Assembly: GCA_037127795.1 (NCBI GenBank)
Contig: JBAXXQ010000001.1
Location: 471,198 to 513,686 of the forward strand
Length of the DNA stretch: 42,489 bases
Source: a bacterium
Lineage (GTDB): Bacteria; Patescibacteriota; Minisyncoccia; Phycocordibacterales; UBA9973
Direction of reading: 5' to 3'
Numbering within the stretch: the first letter of the stretch is position 1; every line of letters begins with the position of its first letter. The notes below the pieces were generated by a model. The model had not been told where the DNA came from and ran no database searches. It saw only the letters and a program-made list of their open reading frames with translations. Shown here piece after piece: positions 2,889 to 39,641 of this stretch. A program made the translations under genes and the position numbers.

Positions 2889-3212
2889 TTATACTATTTT
2901 AAAAGAAGATAAACCAACTAAAACATAGAATAACCACAAAGAGCATATTAAGTACAAAAAATGTGTAAAATAAAGTAATTTTATCTCAATTTTTGTAATT
3001 TTACTTATTTTATATGGAATTAAAAAACTTAATACAGGAATAATTCCAAAAAAATAAACAGGTGCACTATTAGATATAGTATCTGATAAATTATTTATAC
3101 TATTATTAAAATAAAAAACTGGTATTCCGTAAAAAATTACCCACCAAGTTGTATAGATACTGGTTATTAACAATGATTTTTTCCACCATGTTGTAATTTT
3201 ATTTTGCTCCAT
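2889..3212 (-). CDS. Small 3-TM membrane protein, tandem paralogue 1
   Basis: MEQNKITTWWKK N-terminus; starts 9 nt after the lipase-like gene stop. Confidence 0.85.
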   Translation of the reverse strand: MEQNKITTWWKKSLLITSIYTTWWVIFYGIPVFYFNNSINNLSDTISNSAPVYFFGIIPVLSFLIPYKISKITKIEIKLLYFTHFLYLICSLWLFYVLVGLSSFKIV

Positions 3213-3221
3213 ATATATAGT

Positions 3222-6200
3222 CTACAATATAATTAATTTTTTGATAAATTGTAATACTCGCACATACCAGGGATATTTTTTGGGTATTTCTGGTAGGGTA
3301 TTATTTTGTGAAAGTGTGTTTGTCGAAGTACTTTGTACAATCTTAGTATCTTGCACTTTTTTATGTTTTATATCACCGGTCTTTTTATCTCCTAGTACTA
3401 CCAATTTTTCTGGGATAGTACCTTGCTTTTCTTCTTTTGAAATAATAATTTCTGTTTTATCTTTTTCTACATCAATAGGTTTTATTCCACCATGGTTTTG
3501 TATTTGAGATATTATTGGAGTACTTAAAGAATCTTTTGCAAATACTGTACTATCCACCACCCCATCACCGTTTTCATCAAGCGCAACACTATAGCTAGTA
3601 TTTTGCGCACTTATATCCATATGTGCCTTCATAGACAAACTATCTATAGGGAGCTTGGTAAAATATGCACTACTAGTAACAACATCTTGAGTATCTATCT
3701 TATGTATATACATATCGTATGTACCCATATGCTCTGCAGTATTTACTATTTTGTATTGAGGGCCATCTGGTAAATATGCGTATTTTTGATCTTCAATAAT
3801 ATTGTAGGTGACATTCGGTATGCTGTACTCAATACTACCATCAGGTAGTGGGCCAGTATGATTCCCCTTATCGTCATAAATCTGTAAAGTAACAGGACTA
3901 TGATTTTCTATTGAAGTCCCAGACTGTAAACAAATATCTGGACTACTAGAAAACGAATTGTTTGTATCTATACTTTTTCCAGAAAGAATATTTACTATCG
4001 CATTTCGTATTCCTTCTACAGAAGGAAGCTCTGCATGGCTTCCTATATTTGAATAAAAATGTTGACCTTGGTTTATAAAATTTGCACTCTTGAGAGGTAC
4101 TGTTTCATCTCCTTCTACATACCCAATACTAAATGCTTCAATATATGGGAAATATGCACCTTTAGTAATATTTATATTTTGTATTGTCTTTGTACTACAC
4201 CCAGCAAAATCATACACATGGGTATTTTTGTATATAGGGGTATTATCAACCATATTATGCAAGATATCTGCGTAATTAAACATATCAGCATTTCTTCCAG
4301 AATTGATCATAAGATTTTTTGTATCTTCAATATCTAAATTAGTAGTATTTAAACTTACATAACTACCAAATTGTGCGCTTGGTAAAAGCTCATAGATAGA
4401 TGGCATATTTTGAGAAATTGATTTTATTCTTGTTTGACTCAAAATATTAATACCTAGTCCACCTATACCTAAATTATCTCCATACATAAGTGCCTTAAAT
4501 GCTTTTGGTGCACCAAGATGTGGTGTACCTACAAAAAATAAATTATCTATGTTTTGGTCCCCATATTCTGCAATATAGCGTTTTGTAATAAGTCCGCCCA
4601 TACTATGCGCAATAATATCTATACTATCATATCCAGTATCTTGCATTACTTGATCTATTTTTTGTTTCAATTTATCTGCACTTGTTTTACTATCAAAACG
4701 CCAATCGTATGGAAATACGAATAAGTCGGTATTTTCTACATACCCATCTTTATTTTTCAAATCTGCTATTAGGTAATCAAAAGTATGTGTAAATGCTGCA
4801 GATCTAATAATATCCCCTGTTACTATATGGTAACCAGGATCTTCTGTACCATCATATTTTAATGATAAAGGATTCAAAAAATGATCAAATAAATTAGTAA
4901 AAAGTTTAAACAAGCTAGGCCAAATTTCTTCATTATTATCATACGCTTTTAGAAGTTGTGTCCCAGAAATTCCTGGAATAATAATCACCGGCACACGAGA
5001 ATTTTTGGGATCGTGCCGCAAGAATGGCGCAAAATTCACTACACTTGGATCAGGCACAAAGCTATCTATGCTTGGACCATCTTTTGTCCCCCACCAGTTT
5101 TTTGAAATATCTAAACCAGGCCCTATATACAATACATTGAGATTATTTGTATCATGAATACTATTATTTTTTATTTCAGAATCTGCTGATTGATCAAAAA
5201 TACGCAATGCAAATGCTGTCGTATTATATATTTCACTATCGTGCATTTGTATAGAGACAGTACTACCTTGCTGTCCATCAGTCTCTATTCCTTGTCCGAC
5301 ATCATGTATTTTTACATGTGATACAACAAGGCTCGAGCCTGGATATATAGTAATCCCAGCATTTCCATTTTTTATTTCTGTATTGGTAATCTGTGCAGTA
5401 GAAGAATTACCAGACATGATTCCCATCCAGCTTGCTTTGTCTATATCGCTATCTTGGATATGTAACGTGCTCGCATCAAAACCACTAATACCAGTGTTTG
5501 CATTTTTTATATGGACTGTATTGAGTGAAAGATTTGTATTTGAAATACTTATTGCAGTATTAGTCGTAATATCAATACTGGTATTAGTGAAAGTAGCGAT
5601 AGTATCCGCAAGTACAATTGCATTATTGGTACTACTTACTACAGACGAGTCAATCAAATCTATATGTGATTTTGAAAATACATATATCCCAATATCGCAA
5701 TCAAGAATACTAATATTATCAATATGAAGCGTACTTGTATCTCCCAAAACCCCTGTATTTGCTCCAGATATGGCTGTGTGAGATATAGTCGCTGTACTAT
5801 CATACAGCGATACACCGCCACTATTCATATCTATATAACTAAATACCGCATCGCCACCATATACAACTATTTCATATTTATTCCCATCAAATTGCACATG
5901 ACTATCTGGATTACCTTGTATATGAATACTTCCCAAAACAAGCATATCTGCACCATCTGCAAAATATAATATTGCGCCCAGATCTATAGCTAAATCAGTA
6001 CCTTCTGACACAGTCGATCTTCCATATAGACTATAGCTCCCATCTCCACCAGTAAGTGTATTACTATCAGCAATAGTACTACCTTCTACTATTTTCCAAC
6101 CTTGTATACCTGTTTGTACAAAACTAGTACCAGTATGCACAAAACGCGTAGCGAAGGTGATTTGTGCAGGAATTTTTACAGAAGTAAAAGTAGTTTGCTG

Positions 6201-34672: not shown

Positions 34673-34748
34673 ATATAACTACATAATGCCACAAAAAGGC
34701 AAATAAAAAAAGCTCAATATCAAAATACTGAACTTTTTGTTCAAAAAA

Positions 34749-34916
34749 CTATTTTTTTATTATTTTCAACACCGAAACCCCCATAGCCATTACTAATACT
34801 TTATCAAATAAATCTACGAGGCTTGATTTAAAAACAATTCCAAAATAATTTTCATATAAACTTGTAACTATTACAAGAACTATCCAAAAAATTACCCATA
34901 AAGTTTTCTTATTCAT
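34749..34916 (-). CDS. Small 2-TM membrane protein (55 aa)
   Basis: Start ATG 34916 (MNKKTLWVIFW...), downstream of promoter TTGACT-17-TACTTT (34963..34935). Confidence 0.6.
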   Translation of the reverse strand: MNKKTLWVIFWIVLVIVTSLYENYFGIVFKSSLVDLFDKVLVMAMGVSVLKIIKK

Positions 34917-34958
34917 TTCTAATGATTTTTTATAAAAGTAACATATATGTATATAAAA

Positions 34959-35037
34959 GTCAAGTACCACAATAGCACAATATATAAAATAACAAATCCC
35001 CGACACAATTGCCGGAGATTACATAGTACGAATGAAA
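34959..35037. repeat. Cassette junction copy A (terminator hairpin + conserved spacer + next -35)
   Basis: 65/79 identical to 35452..35530 by manual alignment. Confidence 0.9.
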
Positions 35038-35038
35038 A

Positions 35039-35401
35039 TTATTCTGTTTTAAAACTTAAACCTCTTTCTTCTAAGCAGATTTGAAGATCTCTTAAATTCT
35101 TTTTTCCAACACCTGTAATTCCAGAAATTTGCTCTTTTTTAAAAAGGCAAACATCTTCTATATTATTTACCCCTATAGACTTGAGCGCATTAAACATTGT
35201 CACACTTAACGCATCAGAAGGAAGATTTTGAAGAGGTGTTGGAACAAGAAAATTGAAACATATTTTTTTCTTGTTAGAAAATAGATTTATGGCATCTAAA
35301 TTATCTTCTACATCAATTCCTTTTGTTTTTAAAAAAGAAACAATATCTTTTGTTTCAAGAGTAACCTCTACTCTTGAAACTGTTTTTGCTTTAATTTTCA
35401 T
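35039..35401 (-). CDS. Stand-alone RNA polymerase alpha-CTD-like protein
   Basis: C-terminal half LSVTMFNALKSIGV...GVGKKNLRDLQICLEERGLSF matches the alpha-CTD pattern LTVRSANCLK...LGKKSLTEI...LASRGLSL. Own promoter TTGACG-17-TATTAT. Confidence 0.8.
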   Translation of the reverse strand: MKIKAKTVSRVEVTLETKDIVSFLKTKGIDVEDNLDAINLFSNKKKICFNFLVPTPLQNLPSDALSVTMFNALKSIGVNNIEDVCLFKKEQISGITGVGKKNLRDLQICLEERGLSFKTE

Positions 35402-35451
35402 CTTTATTTAATTTTTGATTTGTATATATAATATAACTTTTATTACAATTC

Positions 35452-35530
35452 GTCAAGTACCATATCTACGCAATATATAAAATAACAAACCCCCGACACA
35501 ATTGCCGGGGGCTACATAACATAAATGAAA
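35452..35530. repeat. Cassette junction copy B
   Basis: Homologous to 34959..35037; its first 27 bp are identical to 37884..37910. Confidence 0.9.
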
Positions 35531-37792
35531 TCACCTTTTTAAATACTCTCCTTTTTTTCTACCAAAAACCTCATTGAATGTTTTTGAATAAACTCTTTGG
35601 AAGTCAACAGTATAAGGCCAAACAATAAATTTATTATCTTTTCTTGCTTTATCATATTCTTTTCCAGAAAAACTTTTTCCTTTGAAATGATCAAGTACTT
35701 TTTGATATAAATCTTTTTCTGATAAATATTCAATTTTGACGAGCTTTCCCTTATTGAAAAAGAATTCAGCAAAAGTTTTTGAATAAAGCCTTGAGAACAT
35801 ATCTTCATAAGGCCAAGAATAAAAATTATTTTCTTTCCTTACTTTTTCATACTGCGAACCGGTAAATTTCTCGTCTTTAAGATAAATTGCGACTTCTTTT
35901 CTAAGTTGCTCTTCTGATAGATAAGTAATCTGACGTTTTTGTTTTATACCAAAAAATATTTCCTTAAAATTTTTAGAGTAAGTATTATAGAGAAAACCAG
36001 AAGAAGGCCATCTAAAAAAAAATTTATCACGTTTTATTTTATCGTAATCTTTAATACTGAAACTTATTTTTCCTAAATGCCTAAAAACTTCTTTTTTAAG
36101 TTTTTTTTCTGATAAGAAGTTGTTAACCTTTCTTCCTGTAAAAAGTTCCCCAAATGTTTTTGAATAAACTCTTGGAAATTCAGTAGATCTTGCCCAAAAA
36201 ATAAAACTGTTATCTTTTTTTGCCTTATCATACTCTTTTTGTGTAAAAGATTTTCCGTTAAAATATTTACAAGTTTCTTTTTTAAGTTGTTCTTTAGATA
36301 AATAAGTTGTCTTATTATTTTTTTTCTTACCAAAGAATAATTCTTTAAAAGTTTTTGAATAAATTCTTGGAAATTCAGAATAATCAGGCCACTTATTAGA
36401 AAATAATAACTTTTTTACTTTCGTGTATTCACTTATAGTTAGTTTTTTTCCAATAAAATACCCCAGTACCTCTTTTTTAAACACTTCTTCACTAGACCAA
36501 ACCCTATATAAACGAGAATTCTTTTCTATCGCTTTCGCGATTTCGATCACCTCCAACTCTTCTGTGGAGAATTCAATATCGAATTCTTTTCCAGAAACAG
36601 TCAAAATAGATCTGTCTAGGACGCCAAGGTTTAGCTTAGAGCGAGTAATTTCAATAGATTGTGCAAGACTACTTACCATAACAAGCCTTTCAGCATTTGC
36701 TACAAAATCAAGCACTAAAGCAATTTTACCTTCTTGTAAACGCAAAACTCTTCCTAGTTGTTGGAAAAATACTCTTTTAGAATCAGTACAACGTAAGAAC
36801 ACTCCAATTTGCACATTAGGCACATCAATATCTTCGTTTAGCTTGTTCACCGAAACCAAAAATTGAATTTCGTTTTCGCGGAACTTTTTCATAAAAGTTT
36901 GATTGTGACCGCGTGATTTTTGGGAATGTATAACACCTGCACTTTTTCCATCAGCAATAATTTGATGATATACCCTATCTGCATGTATGATATTCTCGCA
37001 ATAAATTAATGTTTGCTTTGAAATATCAGTGCATGCATACGAATAAATTTCATCAAAAGTTTCTCTATCCAATGAGTCAATAAATAAATTTTCATTTATT
37101 TGCTTCATTGAAATATTTTTTCTTTCTGCAACAACATATTGAAACATTTGTTTCAATTGTTTTCTGTTTAAACCAGAAGACTTCACAAGATATTTCACTT
37201 GCGACATCCATCCGTTAATCATAGCTTCTTCAAAAGATATTTCATAGATAACTTTTTCAAAAATCTCTAGGATATCTTTTTCATCTTCCCTGTCAGGAGT
37301 TGCTGTCATGCCTATTTTAGGAGCATTGAAATAATCAATAACTTCTTTGTAGGTTACTGCTTGTCCGTGATGTGCTTCGTTTACGATAATAAATTTAAAA
37401 TGATCCTCGTTAAAGTAGTTGTACCATTTTTCATGGTGGTTGTTCATACTTTGATACGAGGCAAATACTATATCAGCTCGTTCAGGATCAGTATCTTTAT
37501 CATCGCCAAAAAAACTTGCGCAGATAATACGTTCGTCTGCAAAGATTTGTTCAAATTTTTCGCGCGCTTGGTCTAATCCCTCATTTTCATTGTAGAGATA
37601 TAGTCCTTTCATGTGATATATTTGAATACAATCCCTTGCGATAAACGCAGCCTCAGTACTTTTACCCGTACTGGTGGGCTGGATGATTAATCCATTTTCA
37701 CCAGCCAAGATATTCTCGATAGCAATATCAACAATAGGTTGCTGATATTCACGAGGTACTTTTGGCACTTCTTGAATTAGTAATTCTTTCAT
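35531..37792 (-). CDS. SF2 (DExH/ResIII-like) helicase with five C-terminal ~63 aa repeats
   Basis: QPTSTGKS, VNEAHH, GMTATPDRED, LNEDIDVP, QQLGRVLR; repeats YLSxxxLxKxV...Y.K.....WP....F.R.YSKTF.E.F.G. Promoter TTGACT-17-TATAAT at 37888..37860. Confidence 0.9.
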   Translation of the reverse strand: MKELLIQEVPKVPREYQQPIVDIAIENILAGENGLIIQPTSTGKSTEAAFIARDCIQIYHMKGLYLYNENEGLDQAREKFEQIFADERIICASFFGDDKDTDPERADIVFASYQSMNNHHEKWYNYFNEDHFKFIIVNEAHHGQAVTYKEVIDYFNAPKIGMTATPDREDEKDILEIFEKVIYEISFEEAMINGWMSQVKYLVKSSGLNRKQLKQMFQYVVAERKNISMKQINENLFIDSLDRETFDEIYSYACTDISKQTLIYCENIIHADRVYHQIIADGKSAGVIHSQKSRGHNQTFMKKFRENEIQFLVSVNKLNEDIDVPNVQIGVFLRCTDSKRVFFQQLGRVLRLQEGKIALVLDFVANAERLVMVSSLAQSIEITRSKLNLGVLDRSILTVSGKEFDIEFSTEELEVIEIAKAIEKNSRLYRVWSSEEVFKKEVLGYFIGKKLTISEYTKVKKLLFSNKWPDYSEFPRIYSKTFKELFFGKKKNNKTTYLSKEQLKKETCKYFNGKSFTQKEYDKAKKDNSFIFWARSTEFPRVYSKTFGELFTGRKVNNFLSEKKLKKEVFRHLGKISFSIKDYDKIKRDKFFFRWPSSGFLYNTYSKNFKEIFFGIKQKRQITYLSEEQLRKEVAIYLKDEKFTGSQYEKVRKENNFYSWPYEDMFSRLYSKTFAEFFFNKGKLVKIEYLSEKDLYQKVLDHFKGKSFSGKEYDKARKDNKFIVWPYTVDFQRVYSKTFNEVFGRKKGEYLKR

Positions 37793-37883
37793 TTTATTAT
37801 GTTTTGAAAGGACAAATAGGCAATATCGCCAATATTTTTAATATAATGTAATTTGTTATATTATATACATATTTTGCATAAAA

Positions 37884-37910
37884 GTCAAGTACCATATCTA
37901 CGCAATATAT
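37884..37910. repeat. Cassette junction copy C (27 bp perfect direct repeat)
   Basis: GTCAAGTACCATATCTACGCAATATAT, also at 35452..35478. Confidence 0.95.
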
Positions 37911-37929
37911 GCTATATTTTGCAAGCCTA

Positions 37930-38020
37930 AATCAGCCAGCCTCTACCGAGGTTTTGGCCTGGTAAAAGCAGAATTATTCAGGTTAATAAGGGGGTAAGAC
38001 AACTTCCCTCTGCTACAGAT
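37930..38020 (+). promoter_or_regulatory. Structured rpsB 5' leader (possible S2 autoregulatory element)
   Basis: Hairpin CCAG-CCTC-TACC-GAGG-TTTTGG and GCAGA...TCTGC pairing just before the rpsB start. Confidence 0.5.
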
Positions 38021-38025
38021 AAAAT

Positions 38026-39530: not shown

Positions 39531-39562
39531 AAAAAATCCCCAGAGAAATCTGGGGATTTTTT
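39531..39562. terminator. Bidirectional terminator between tsf and tRNA-Thr
   Basis: AAAAAATCCCCAGA-GAAA-TCTGGGGATTTTTT. Confidence 0.92.
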
Positions 39563-39565
39563 AAT

Positions 39566-39641
39566 TGGAGCCGCTTCTCAGACTTGAACTGAGGACCTTC
39601 GCTTTACAAAAGCGTTGCTCTACCAACTGAGCTAAAGCGGC
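39566..39641 (-). tRNA. tRNA-Thr (TGT)
   Basis: 76 nt cloverleaf GCCGCTTTAGCTCAGTTGGTAGAGC...TTTGTAA...TTCAAGT...GCGGCTCCA with encoded CCA. Confidence 0.97.

Follow-up and report, generated by a model that had tools for sequence, protein, structure and literature searches.

The window analysed here is a 42,489-nt stretch of a bacterial genome of the GTDB lineage Patescibacteriota; Minisyncoccia; Phycocordibacterales; UBA9973, running from position 471,198 to position 513,686 of contig JBAXXQ010000001.1 (assembly GCA_037127795.1). It contains the gene P0001, which encodes a 753-aa helicase of superfamily 2 (SF2) and lies among rpsB, tsf, proS and mreB. In this protein the Mg-binding Asp of the Walker B motif is replaced by Asn, an Asp has appeared in motif V of the facing domain, and the motor core is followed by five tandem repeats. 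The genome, of 682 kb and 99% complete, has a single copy of the gene. The parts of the gene and its product that matter for what follows are these:

35531..37792, minus strand: helicase gene P0001, 753 aa (open reading frame (ORF) list and translation; ResIII, Helicase_C and phrog_16 matches)
36683..37792, minus strand: SF2 motor core of two RecA-like domains, aa 1–370 (Pfam and NCBIfam matches)
37652..37681, minus strand: motif I/Walker A, QPTSTGKSTE (clade comparison)
37379..37381, minus strand: codon AAC of Asn138, first Walker B position, within VNEAHH at 37367–37384
36830..36832, minus strand: codon GAT of Asp321, in motif V KLNEDIDVP (36818–36844), replacing the Gly of NEGIDVP (clade comparison)
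36740..36763, minus strand: motif VI, QQLGRVLR, with arginine fingers R348 and R351, kept in 39/39 clade proteins
36503..36682, minus strand: conserved post-core segment, aa 371–430 (SGxGFDF...), common to the Asn and Asp clades (alignments)
35546..36502, minus strand: five tandem 62-aa repeats, called K-type here (self-alignment; AlphaFold2 model of a repeat pair)
36317–36502, minus strand: repeat R1, aa 431–492
36122–36307, minus strand: repeat R2, aa 496–557
35936–36121, minus strand: repeat R3, aa 558–619
35741–35926, minus strand: repeat R4, aa 623–684
35546–35731, minus strand: repeat R5, aa 688–749

By homology, P0001 is a member of SF2 in spite of its non-canonical motif II. The Pfam domains ResIII (aa 12–168, 1.4e-25, 90.6 bits against a cut-off of 22.5) and Helicase_C (aa 254–352, 9e-12, 45.7 bits against 23.5) supply its two lobes, motifs Q, I, III and VI are all present, and the PHROGs family phrog_16, "DNA helicase", is matched at 2e-59. 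The closest solved chains to the core are 7clg (9e-30), 3h1t (HsdR), XPB and RadD. A preliminary description of the window had read the Walker B region as VNEAHH, with Asn at the Mg-binding position and the other motifs intact, and this reading is correct on both counts: the codons GTA AAC GAA GCA CAT CAC specify V137 to H142, with Asn138 encoded by AAC, and Q17, GKS (43–45), TATP (163–166) and QQLGRVLR (344–351) are all in place. Motif II, as NEAH, departs from the canonical DExH/D with its first-position Asp. The reading frame is intact, and comparison with the 90% identical gene of a sister contig, L001, gives a ratio of nonsynonymous to synonymous substitution rates (dN/dS) of 0.15, made up of 0.11 in the core and 0.21 in the repeats; the housekeeping neighbours give 0.01–0.06.

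Few residues of P-loop motors are as conserved as the Walker B Asp, whose replacement by Asn is the textbook disabling change. How widely, then, is the Asn distributed? Searching 5.8 billion proteins gave 284 relatives, nearly all of them in metagenome-assembled genomes of Patescibacteria. The nearest 37, at 45–90% identity, all have NE[AG]H, and the more distant ones have DE[SAG]H. Among 245 aligned cores, drawn from this search and from the best 150 of 23,637 HMMER family matches, the first Walker B position is Asn in 39 and Asp in 205, and GTDB species-representative genomes contributed eight more NExH loci (L031–L038). In a tree built without the trait columns, the NExH proteins form a single clade with a support of 100, and one change suffices to explain the distribution of Asn and Asp. 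The stem leading to the clade measures 0.27, and the branches inside the clade sum to 13.5 substitutions per site; along them neither site 138 nor site 321 changes, and both Asn codons, AAC and AAT, occur in other assemblies. Homologues at this codon are thus not uniformly DEAH, the outcome that would have pointed to a private mutation or an error; the whole clade is NExH, and across the aligned sequences Asn138 is its fixed hallmark. A literature search for NEAH helicases found no description of a sub-clade combining NExH with D321.

The Asn is coupled to other changes in the nucleotide pocket. Asp321 in motif V is present in 39/39 proteins of the Asn clade and in 0/205 of the DExH relatives. 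At genome loci, Asn and Asp321 occur together in 9, as against 78 that have the Walker B Asp together with Gly, Ala or Cys in motif V, and no mixed state was seen; proteins and loci taken together, 283 DExH relatives have one of these three residues at the position of Asp321. Motif V reads KLNE-D-IDVP in the Asn clade and NE-G-IDVP in the other relatives, and D321 aligns opposite the Gly of 7clg. The P-loop is also altered, in 37/39 proteins of the clade, to QPT[A/S]TGKSxE, compared with MATGLGKTxV, of the form AxGxGKT, in the DExH relatives. The early-branching P0036 and P0076, however, have N138 and D321 with a different P-loop, from which it follows that the Asn/Asp pair is the primary coupled change and came first. 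Everything else in the site has been kept: K44, E139, H141, R348, R351, Q345 and G347 are found in 39/39 proteins of the clade and Q17 in 37/37 of the sequences covering that column, and these residues are conserved at least as strongly as in the DExH relatives. Since the remaining ATP-binding and catalytic residues are retained, the pocket is still selected for nucleotide use; it was rebuilt once and then frozen, and did not decay. It had been proposed that the ATPase activity may be altered or lost; "altered" is the better word, and loss by simple decay is unlikely, given that the clade shows no variation in any other catalytic residue.

Some idea of where Asp321 might lie comes from the ResIII-type Res subunit of EcoP15I, in which the motif V residue Asp509 hydrogen-bonds the sugar of the nucleotide, and Thr503 and Arg505 bind DNA (PMC4490356). 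By correspondence of the motifs, D323 of P0001 would be the ribose-contacting Asp of motif V, and D321, two residues before it, would sit in the RecA2 wall of the cleft.

Both pocket types can be found close together. One genome of the same genus, G018 (loci L009 and L011), has family members of both the NEAH/NEDID type and the DESH type, and another, G019 (L010), has the DESH/NEGID type only, so that the Asn and Asp types are not simple mutual replacements.

The second distinctive part of the protein is its tail. The preliminary description had counted five tandem repeats, and this count holds: the five units align without gaps, with pairwise identities of 34–52%, whereas 2000 shuffles never exceeded 21%. 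Their YSK anchors fall at aa 478, 543, 605, 670 and 735, that is, at spacings of 65, 62, 65 and 65. The repeat region has an isoelectric point (pI) of 9.8, as against 5.3 for the core, with 18% Lys and 20% aromatic residues, and the signature of the unit is [WY]xSEExLKK...Y[DE]K.R...P...F.R[IV]YxKTFxExFxGKK. The supposed start of a sixth repeat is weak, the tail EYLKR and the repeat's EYLSEK having EYL alone in common; the sister orthologue ends in GKMGKRSKK. An AlphaFold2 model of a repeat pair (22 alignment rows) has four helices per unit at a mean predicted local confidence (pLDDT) of 85 with a predicted TM score (pTM) of only 0.47, a combination that suggests well-folded beads, flexibly linked. 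The model of the whole tail (6 rows) reached a pLDDT of only 62, and a search of the Protein Data Bank (PDB) with that model is meaningless. A borderline match of the repeat pair came from a Foldseek search of BFVD, to A0A292GIR6, an unnamed viral protein of 309 aa (E 0.32, probability 0.80, TM score 0.52 over 134 columns), which, to judge from the model, may carry the same mini-domain.

No repeat family was found by Pfam scans at E<=10, whether of individual repeats, the whole tail or P0036 and P0048, two K-type relatives, and a database search with the tail only (aa 431–753) returned only the 90% orthologue. K-type units occur in 5/249 family proteins, three in the Asn clade (P0001, P0002 and P0036) and two in the Asp clade (P0048 and P0092). 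Tails across the family fall into five kinds, namely INT_rpt-like (137), W-type (43), HNH_repeat (33), zinc ribbons (29) and K-type (5), which argues that the tail is an exchangeable module. In one locus, L031, the array is mixed, one INT_rpt unit being followed by K-type units. The likeness to integrase repeats that had been suggested for P0001 therefore stands as far as position is concerned, since the K-type array occupies the sites of INT_rpt and HNH_repeat and is mixed with INT_rpt in L031; as for homology, the profile comparisons fall short of significance. The W-type is another tandem repeat absent from the catalogues, about 65–70 aa long, present in 43/249 helicase relatives and often placed after one INT_rpt unit. 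Its consensus is GW.T...L....I..FAE.FR.DHPEWF......G....YHPDLV..IKE.F, and it is found in P0011 (aa 430–910; seven copies, without a Pfam match), P0012 and P0004.

P0001 can be set beside several known systems. Closest are the Patescibacteria proteins annotated as "integrase repeat-containing" or DEAD/DEAH helicases, which have an orthologous core at 30–55% identity, fall in the same tree and are matched at E values of 1e-143 to 1e-60. They resemble P0001 in the post-core segment, in the combination of a core with tandem small helical repeats, in phylum and in being encoded by a solo gene. They differ in that the array of P0001 is K-type, with no PF14882 match at E<=10, and in that P0001 belongs to the NExH and D321 sub-clade, not to the DExH and Gly one. 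By orthology, P0001 is a member of this "integrase-repeat helicase" family, which is experimentally uncharacterised. The repeat families PF18780 (HNH_repeat) and PF14882 (INT_rpt) are like the K-type in their length of about 55–62 aa, in being built of helices only, the last of which bear aromatic anchors, and in occupying the same place in homologous helicases; the K-type signature is distinct from both, without a Pfam match at E<=10. HNH_repeat has no solved structure for comparison (PMC8078820), and both families are barely covered in the literature searched.

The best sequence matches of the core are to the helicase modules of restriction enzymes, namely the SauUSI-like type IV enzyme 7clg, the EcoAI-type HsdR (3h1t, NF046051) and type III Res (PF04851, EcoP15I). 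These are SF2 motors that track double-stranded DNA, and EcoP15I Res sets the precedent that such an enzyme can be an ATP-triggered switch and need not be a processive motor (PMC4490356). P0001, in contrast, has helicase domains only in Pfam and thus no nuclease domain, has no Mod, HsdM or HsdS partner, combines the NEAH Walker B with a repeat-array tail, and scores 106 against an NCBIfam cut-off of 550. RadD (YejH) and XPB, solo DNA-repair motors, are also similar in the core (NF053632 at 1.5e-25; PDB 6jde and XPB chains). Here, too, the NCBIfam scores of P0001 fall far short (89.6 against 720 and 49.8 against 610). Moreover, P0001 lacks the zinc finger and SSB-binding tail of RadD and the damage-recognition domain of XPB, and it is not conserved across its genus.

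What is the rebuilt pocket for? The Asn at Walker B has been retained over about 13 substitutions per site alongside the catalytic Glu, Lys and arginine fingers, always with an Asp in the facing domain, which raises the question of whether the other RecA lobe can supply the Mg-organising carboxylate and so turn the motor into a DNA-gated switch. The explanation towards which we lean, with modest confidence, is that P0001 is a Patescibacteria-specific ResIII-type SF2 motor with a rebuilt pocket, tethered to DNA by its tail, in which hydrolysis is gated by domain closure and which works without a fixed partner. The carboxylate lost on the RecA1 side (Asn138) would be replaced by one on the RecA2 side (Asp321), and only closure of the two domains on DNA would bring about a productive Mg-ATP geometry. 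What results would be a motor that is slow and tightly gated by DNA, or else a switch triggered by ATP, and not a dead enzyme. The basic five-unit array, folded like beads on a string, would serve as an exchangeable targeting module that tethers the motor to nucleic acid, standing where relatives have INT_rpt, HNH_repeat, zinc ribbons or the other uncatalogued repeat. The most specific part of this explanation, a relocated Mg-organising carboxylate with the site completed in trans upon closure of the cleft, would be an SF2 architecture not described before; judged from sequence, it is a speculative idea and taken by itself rather doubtful. The biological role is probably DNA surveillance or remodelling, dispensable for growth. 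The anatomy of the protein and its evolutionary history are solid, and the closure-gated mechanism and the tethering by the tail are what we infer.

Several points weigh against this explanation. A change of the Walker B Asp to Asn usually lowers hydrolysis by P-loop ATPases by orders of magnitude, and P0001 could be hydrolysis-poor. The coupling of N138 and D321 arose once, so that what is seen is co-occurrence on one branch and not repeated independent covariation. As for the tail, the idea that the repeats bind nucleic acid comes from their charge and architectural position only, and comparisons with the known repeats give no significant homology: with units taken from family members (HNH_repeat, INT_rpt and W-type) and with small and then enlarged alignments, hhalign gave at best P 0.023, for HNH_repeat, in register over 52 columns, and P 0.06 for INT_rpt. 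Nor did a Foldseek search of the PDB with the repeat-pair model find a fold match.

The strongest competing explanation is that P0001 is a hydrolysis-dead pseudo-helicase, an ATP- and DNA-binding clamp or scaffold held in place by its repeats, in which D321 serves, for example, charge balance. The Mg-organising Asp is, after all, replaced by Asn, the P-loop is non-canonical too, and the genome that keeps a canonical DExH paralogue beside its Asn-type copy suggests that the two have different jobs. A pure binder, on the other hand, would have no use for Glu139, His141 and both arginine fingers, which are invariant in all 39 proteins over the whole 13.5 substitutions per site, and decayed ATPases normally lose such residues unevenly. 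We consider the pseudo-helicase unlikely, although it is a serious contender.

If the closure-gated explanation is true, P0001 would be a natural motor or switch of this kind, brought to its target by mini-domain arrays that can be exchanged. Beyond the single protein, there is a sizeable unstudied helicase family, restricted to the candidate phyla radiation, whose C-terminal arrays are swapped like cassettes and are of five kinds, two of which are in no database. It may offer an entry point to target recognition by the mini-domains of integrases, homing endonucleases and helicases. Should P0001 turn out to be an ordinary slow ATPase, NExH with D321 would still be a well-delimited clade marker for annotation.

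How the gene came to its present place is seen from its surroundings, of which the relevant features are:

34673..38025, no strand assigned: low-GC insertion between proS and rpsB, consisting of the helicase cassette and two small cassettes (guanine-plus-cytosine (GC) content; empty sites)
37857..37910, minus strand: predicted helicase promoter module, TTGACT-17-TATAAT at 37888–37860 with a conserved upstream block (the region's best promoter-like site, 11/12)
35488..35513, minus strand: predicted intrinsic terminator immediately behind the stop codon of the helicase gene, part of a 79-nt terminator and promoter module
35039..35401, minus strand: separate cassette with a gene for a protein like the C-terminal domain of the RNA polymerase alpha subunit (alpha-CTD; RNA_pol_A_CTD, 4e-7), with its own predicted promoter (35456–35428) and terminator (35020–34995)

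The insertion has a GC fraction of 0.28–0.33, compared with 0.38–0.40 in its flanks. In four helicase-free genomes of the same genus, rpsB and proS lie next to each other in divergent orientation, only 145–396 bp apart, and these empty sites identify 34673–38025 as an insertion of 3.35 kb. A member of the family, of whichever type, is found in only 4/61 related species (4/37 in the genus), at other loci, with both Asn and Asp types present. The helicase gene is thus accessory and horizontally inserted, and with a predicted promoter and terminator of its own it is probably monocistronic. Within the island, the 79-nt module recurs behind the alpha-CTD gene, at 34959–35037; the genome has three copies of its 24-nt core and two of its hairpin, all inside the island. 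The module (34959–35037, 35452–35530 and 37857–37910) bounds three single-gene cassettes, those of the helicase, the alpha-CTD protein and a small membrane ORF.

Such a history might mean that the helicase is the cargo of a mobile element and serves an integrative element or phage in its replication or recombination, not the host. The insertion is intergenic, between conserved genes; a tyrosine integrase lies directly upstream of the helicase in L004, and large serine recombinases accompany it at 6/84 loci; the best family match is phrog_16; and the repeat types are, by their Pfam names, common to integrases and homing endonucleases. The island itself, however, lacks a recombinase, a flanking target duplication and any other genes of an element, and most helicase loci are set among housekeeping genes. 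Searches of GenBank phages and IMG/VR met relatives of about 31% identity or less only, with no member of the Asn clade in IMG/VR. We regard a role as element cargo as improbable.

Still less credible, and very unlikely in our estimation, is a two-gene defence or sensor module of the helicase and the adjacent alpha-CTD-like protein, as had been raised in the preliminary description. The two genes are adjacent and co-oriented, the 24-nt block upstream of the promoter is common to both and confined to the island, and the helicase gene is accessory and patchy. Yet the alpha-CTD gene, which has its own predicted promoter and terminator and so would be transcribed separately, lies together with the small membrane ORF in a 780-bp indel (34698–35477) where the 90% identical sister locus has 51 bp instead; the alpha-CTD gene is also absent at about 100 other helicase loci, and a word search of the protein database for its homologues returned only the query. 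It is a strain-specific cassette and not a conserved partner. No nuclease, methylase or known defence partner is present in the window or at the syntenic sister locus, the first two having been correctly reported as absent from view, and no conserved neighbour emerged from seven annotated contexts together with all-against-all ORF clustering of 84 loci. PADLOC 2.0 gave partial helicase-core matches only (mREase_IV, PbeA and REase_I), with no full system and no effector. The suggested defensive role found no positive evidence, the PADLOC matches being generic and conserved neighbours lacking, though it would fit a gene that is patchy, inserted and accessory. Finally, sequencing error, a private mutation or a decaying pseudogene, for which nothing speaks beyond the rarity of NExH, is refuted and of negligible probability, because NE[AG]H extends across the clade and the genome loci, in 47 independent sequences that use both AAC and AAT, and because the frame is intact at a dN/dS of 0.15.

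A few minor observations concern the surroundings of the helicase here and elsewhere. In 5/84 loci (L028/L035, L030, L054, L073 and L078) a gene for RmuC is found no more than 6 kb from the helicase, and the large serine recombinase, of about 530 aa, is near it in the six loci referred to above; these frequencies are slightly above chance for genomes of about 700 genes and far from a conserved pairing. The sister contig has an extra gene (3098–4227) for a pyridoxal-dependent decarboxylase of 366 aa, between a small ORF downstream of a GT2 operon and tsf; its absence from the window, at 39562–39568, represents another strain-level indel. In the third cassette of the island, the 85-aa ORF with a GTG start at 34749–35006 on the minus strand has its start within the terminator that precedes it, upstream of the promoter meant to drive it, and a plausible product is a hydrophobic peptide of 55 aa that starts from the ATG at 34916 (MNKKTLWVIFWIVLVIV...).

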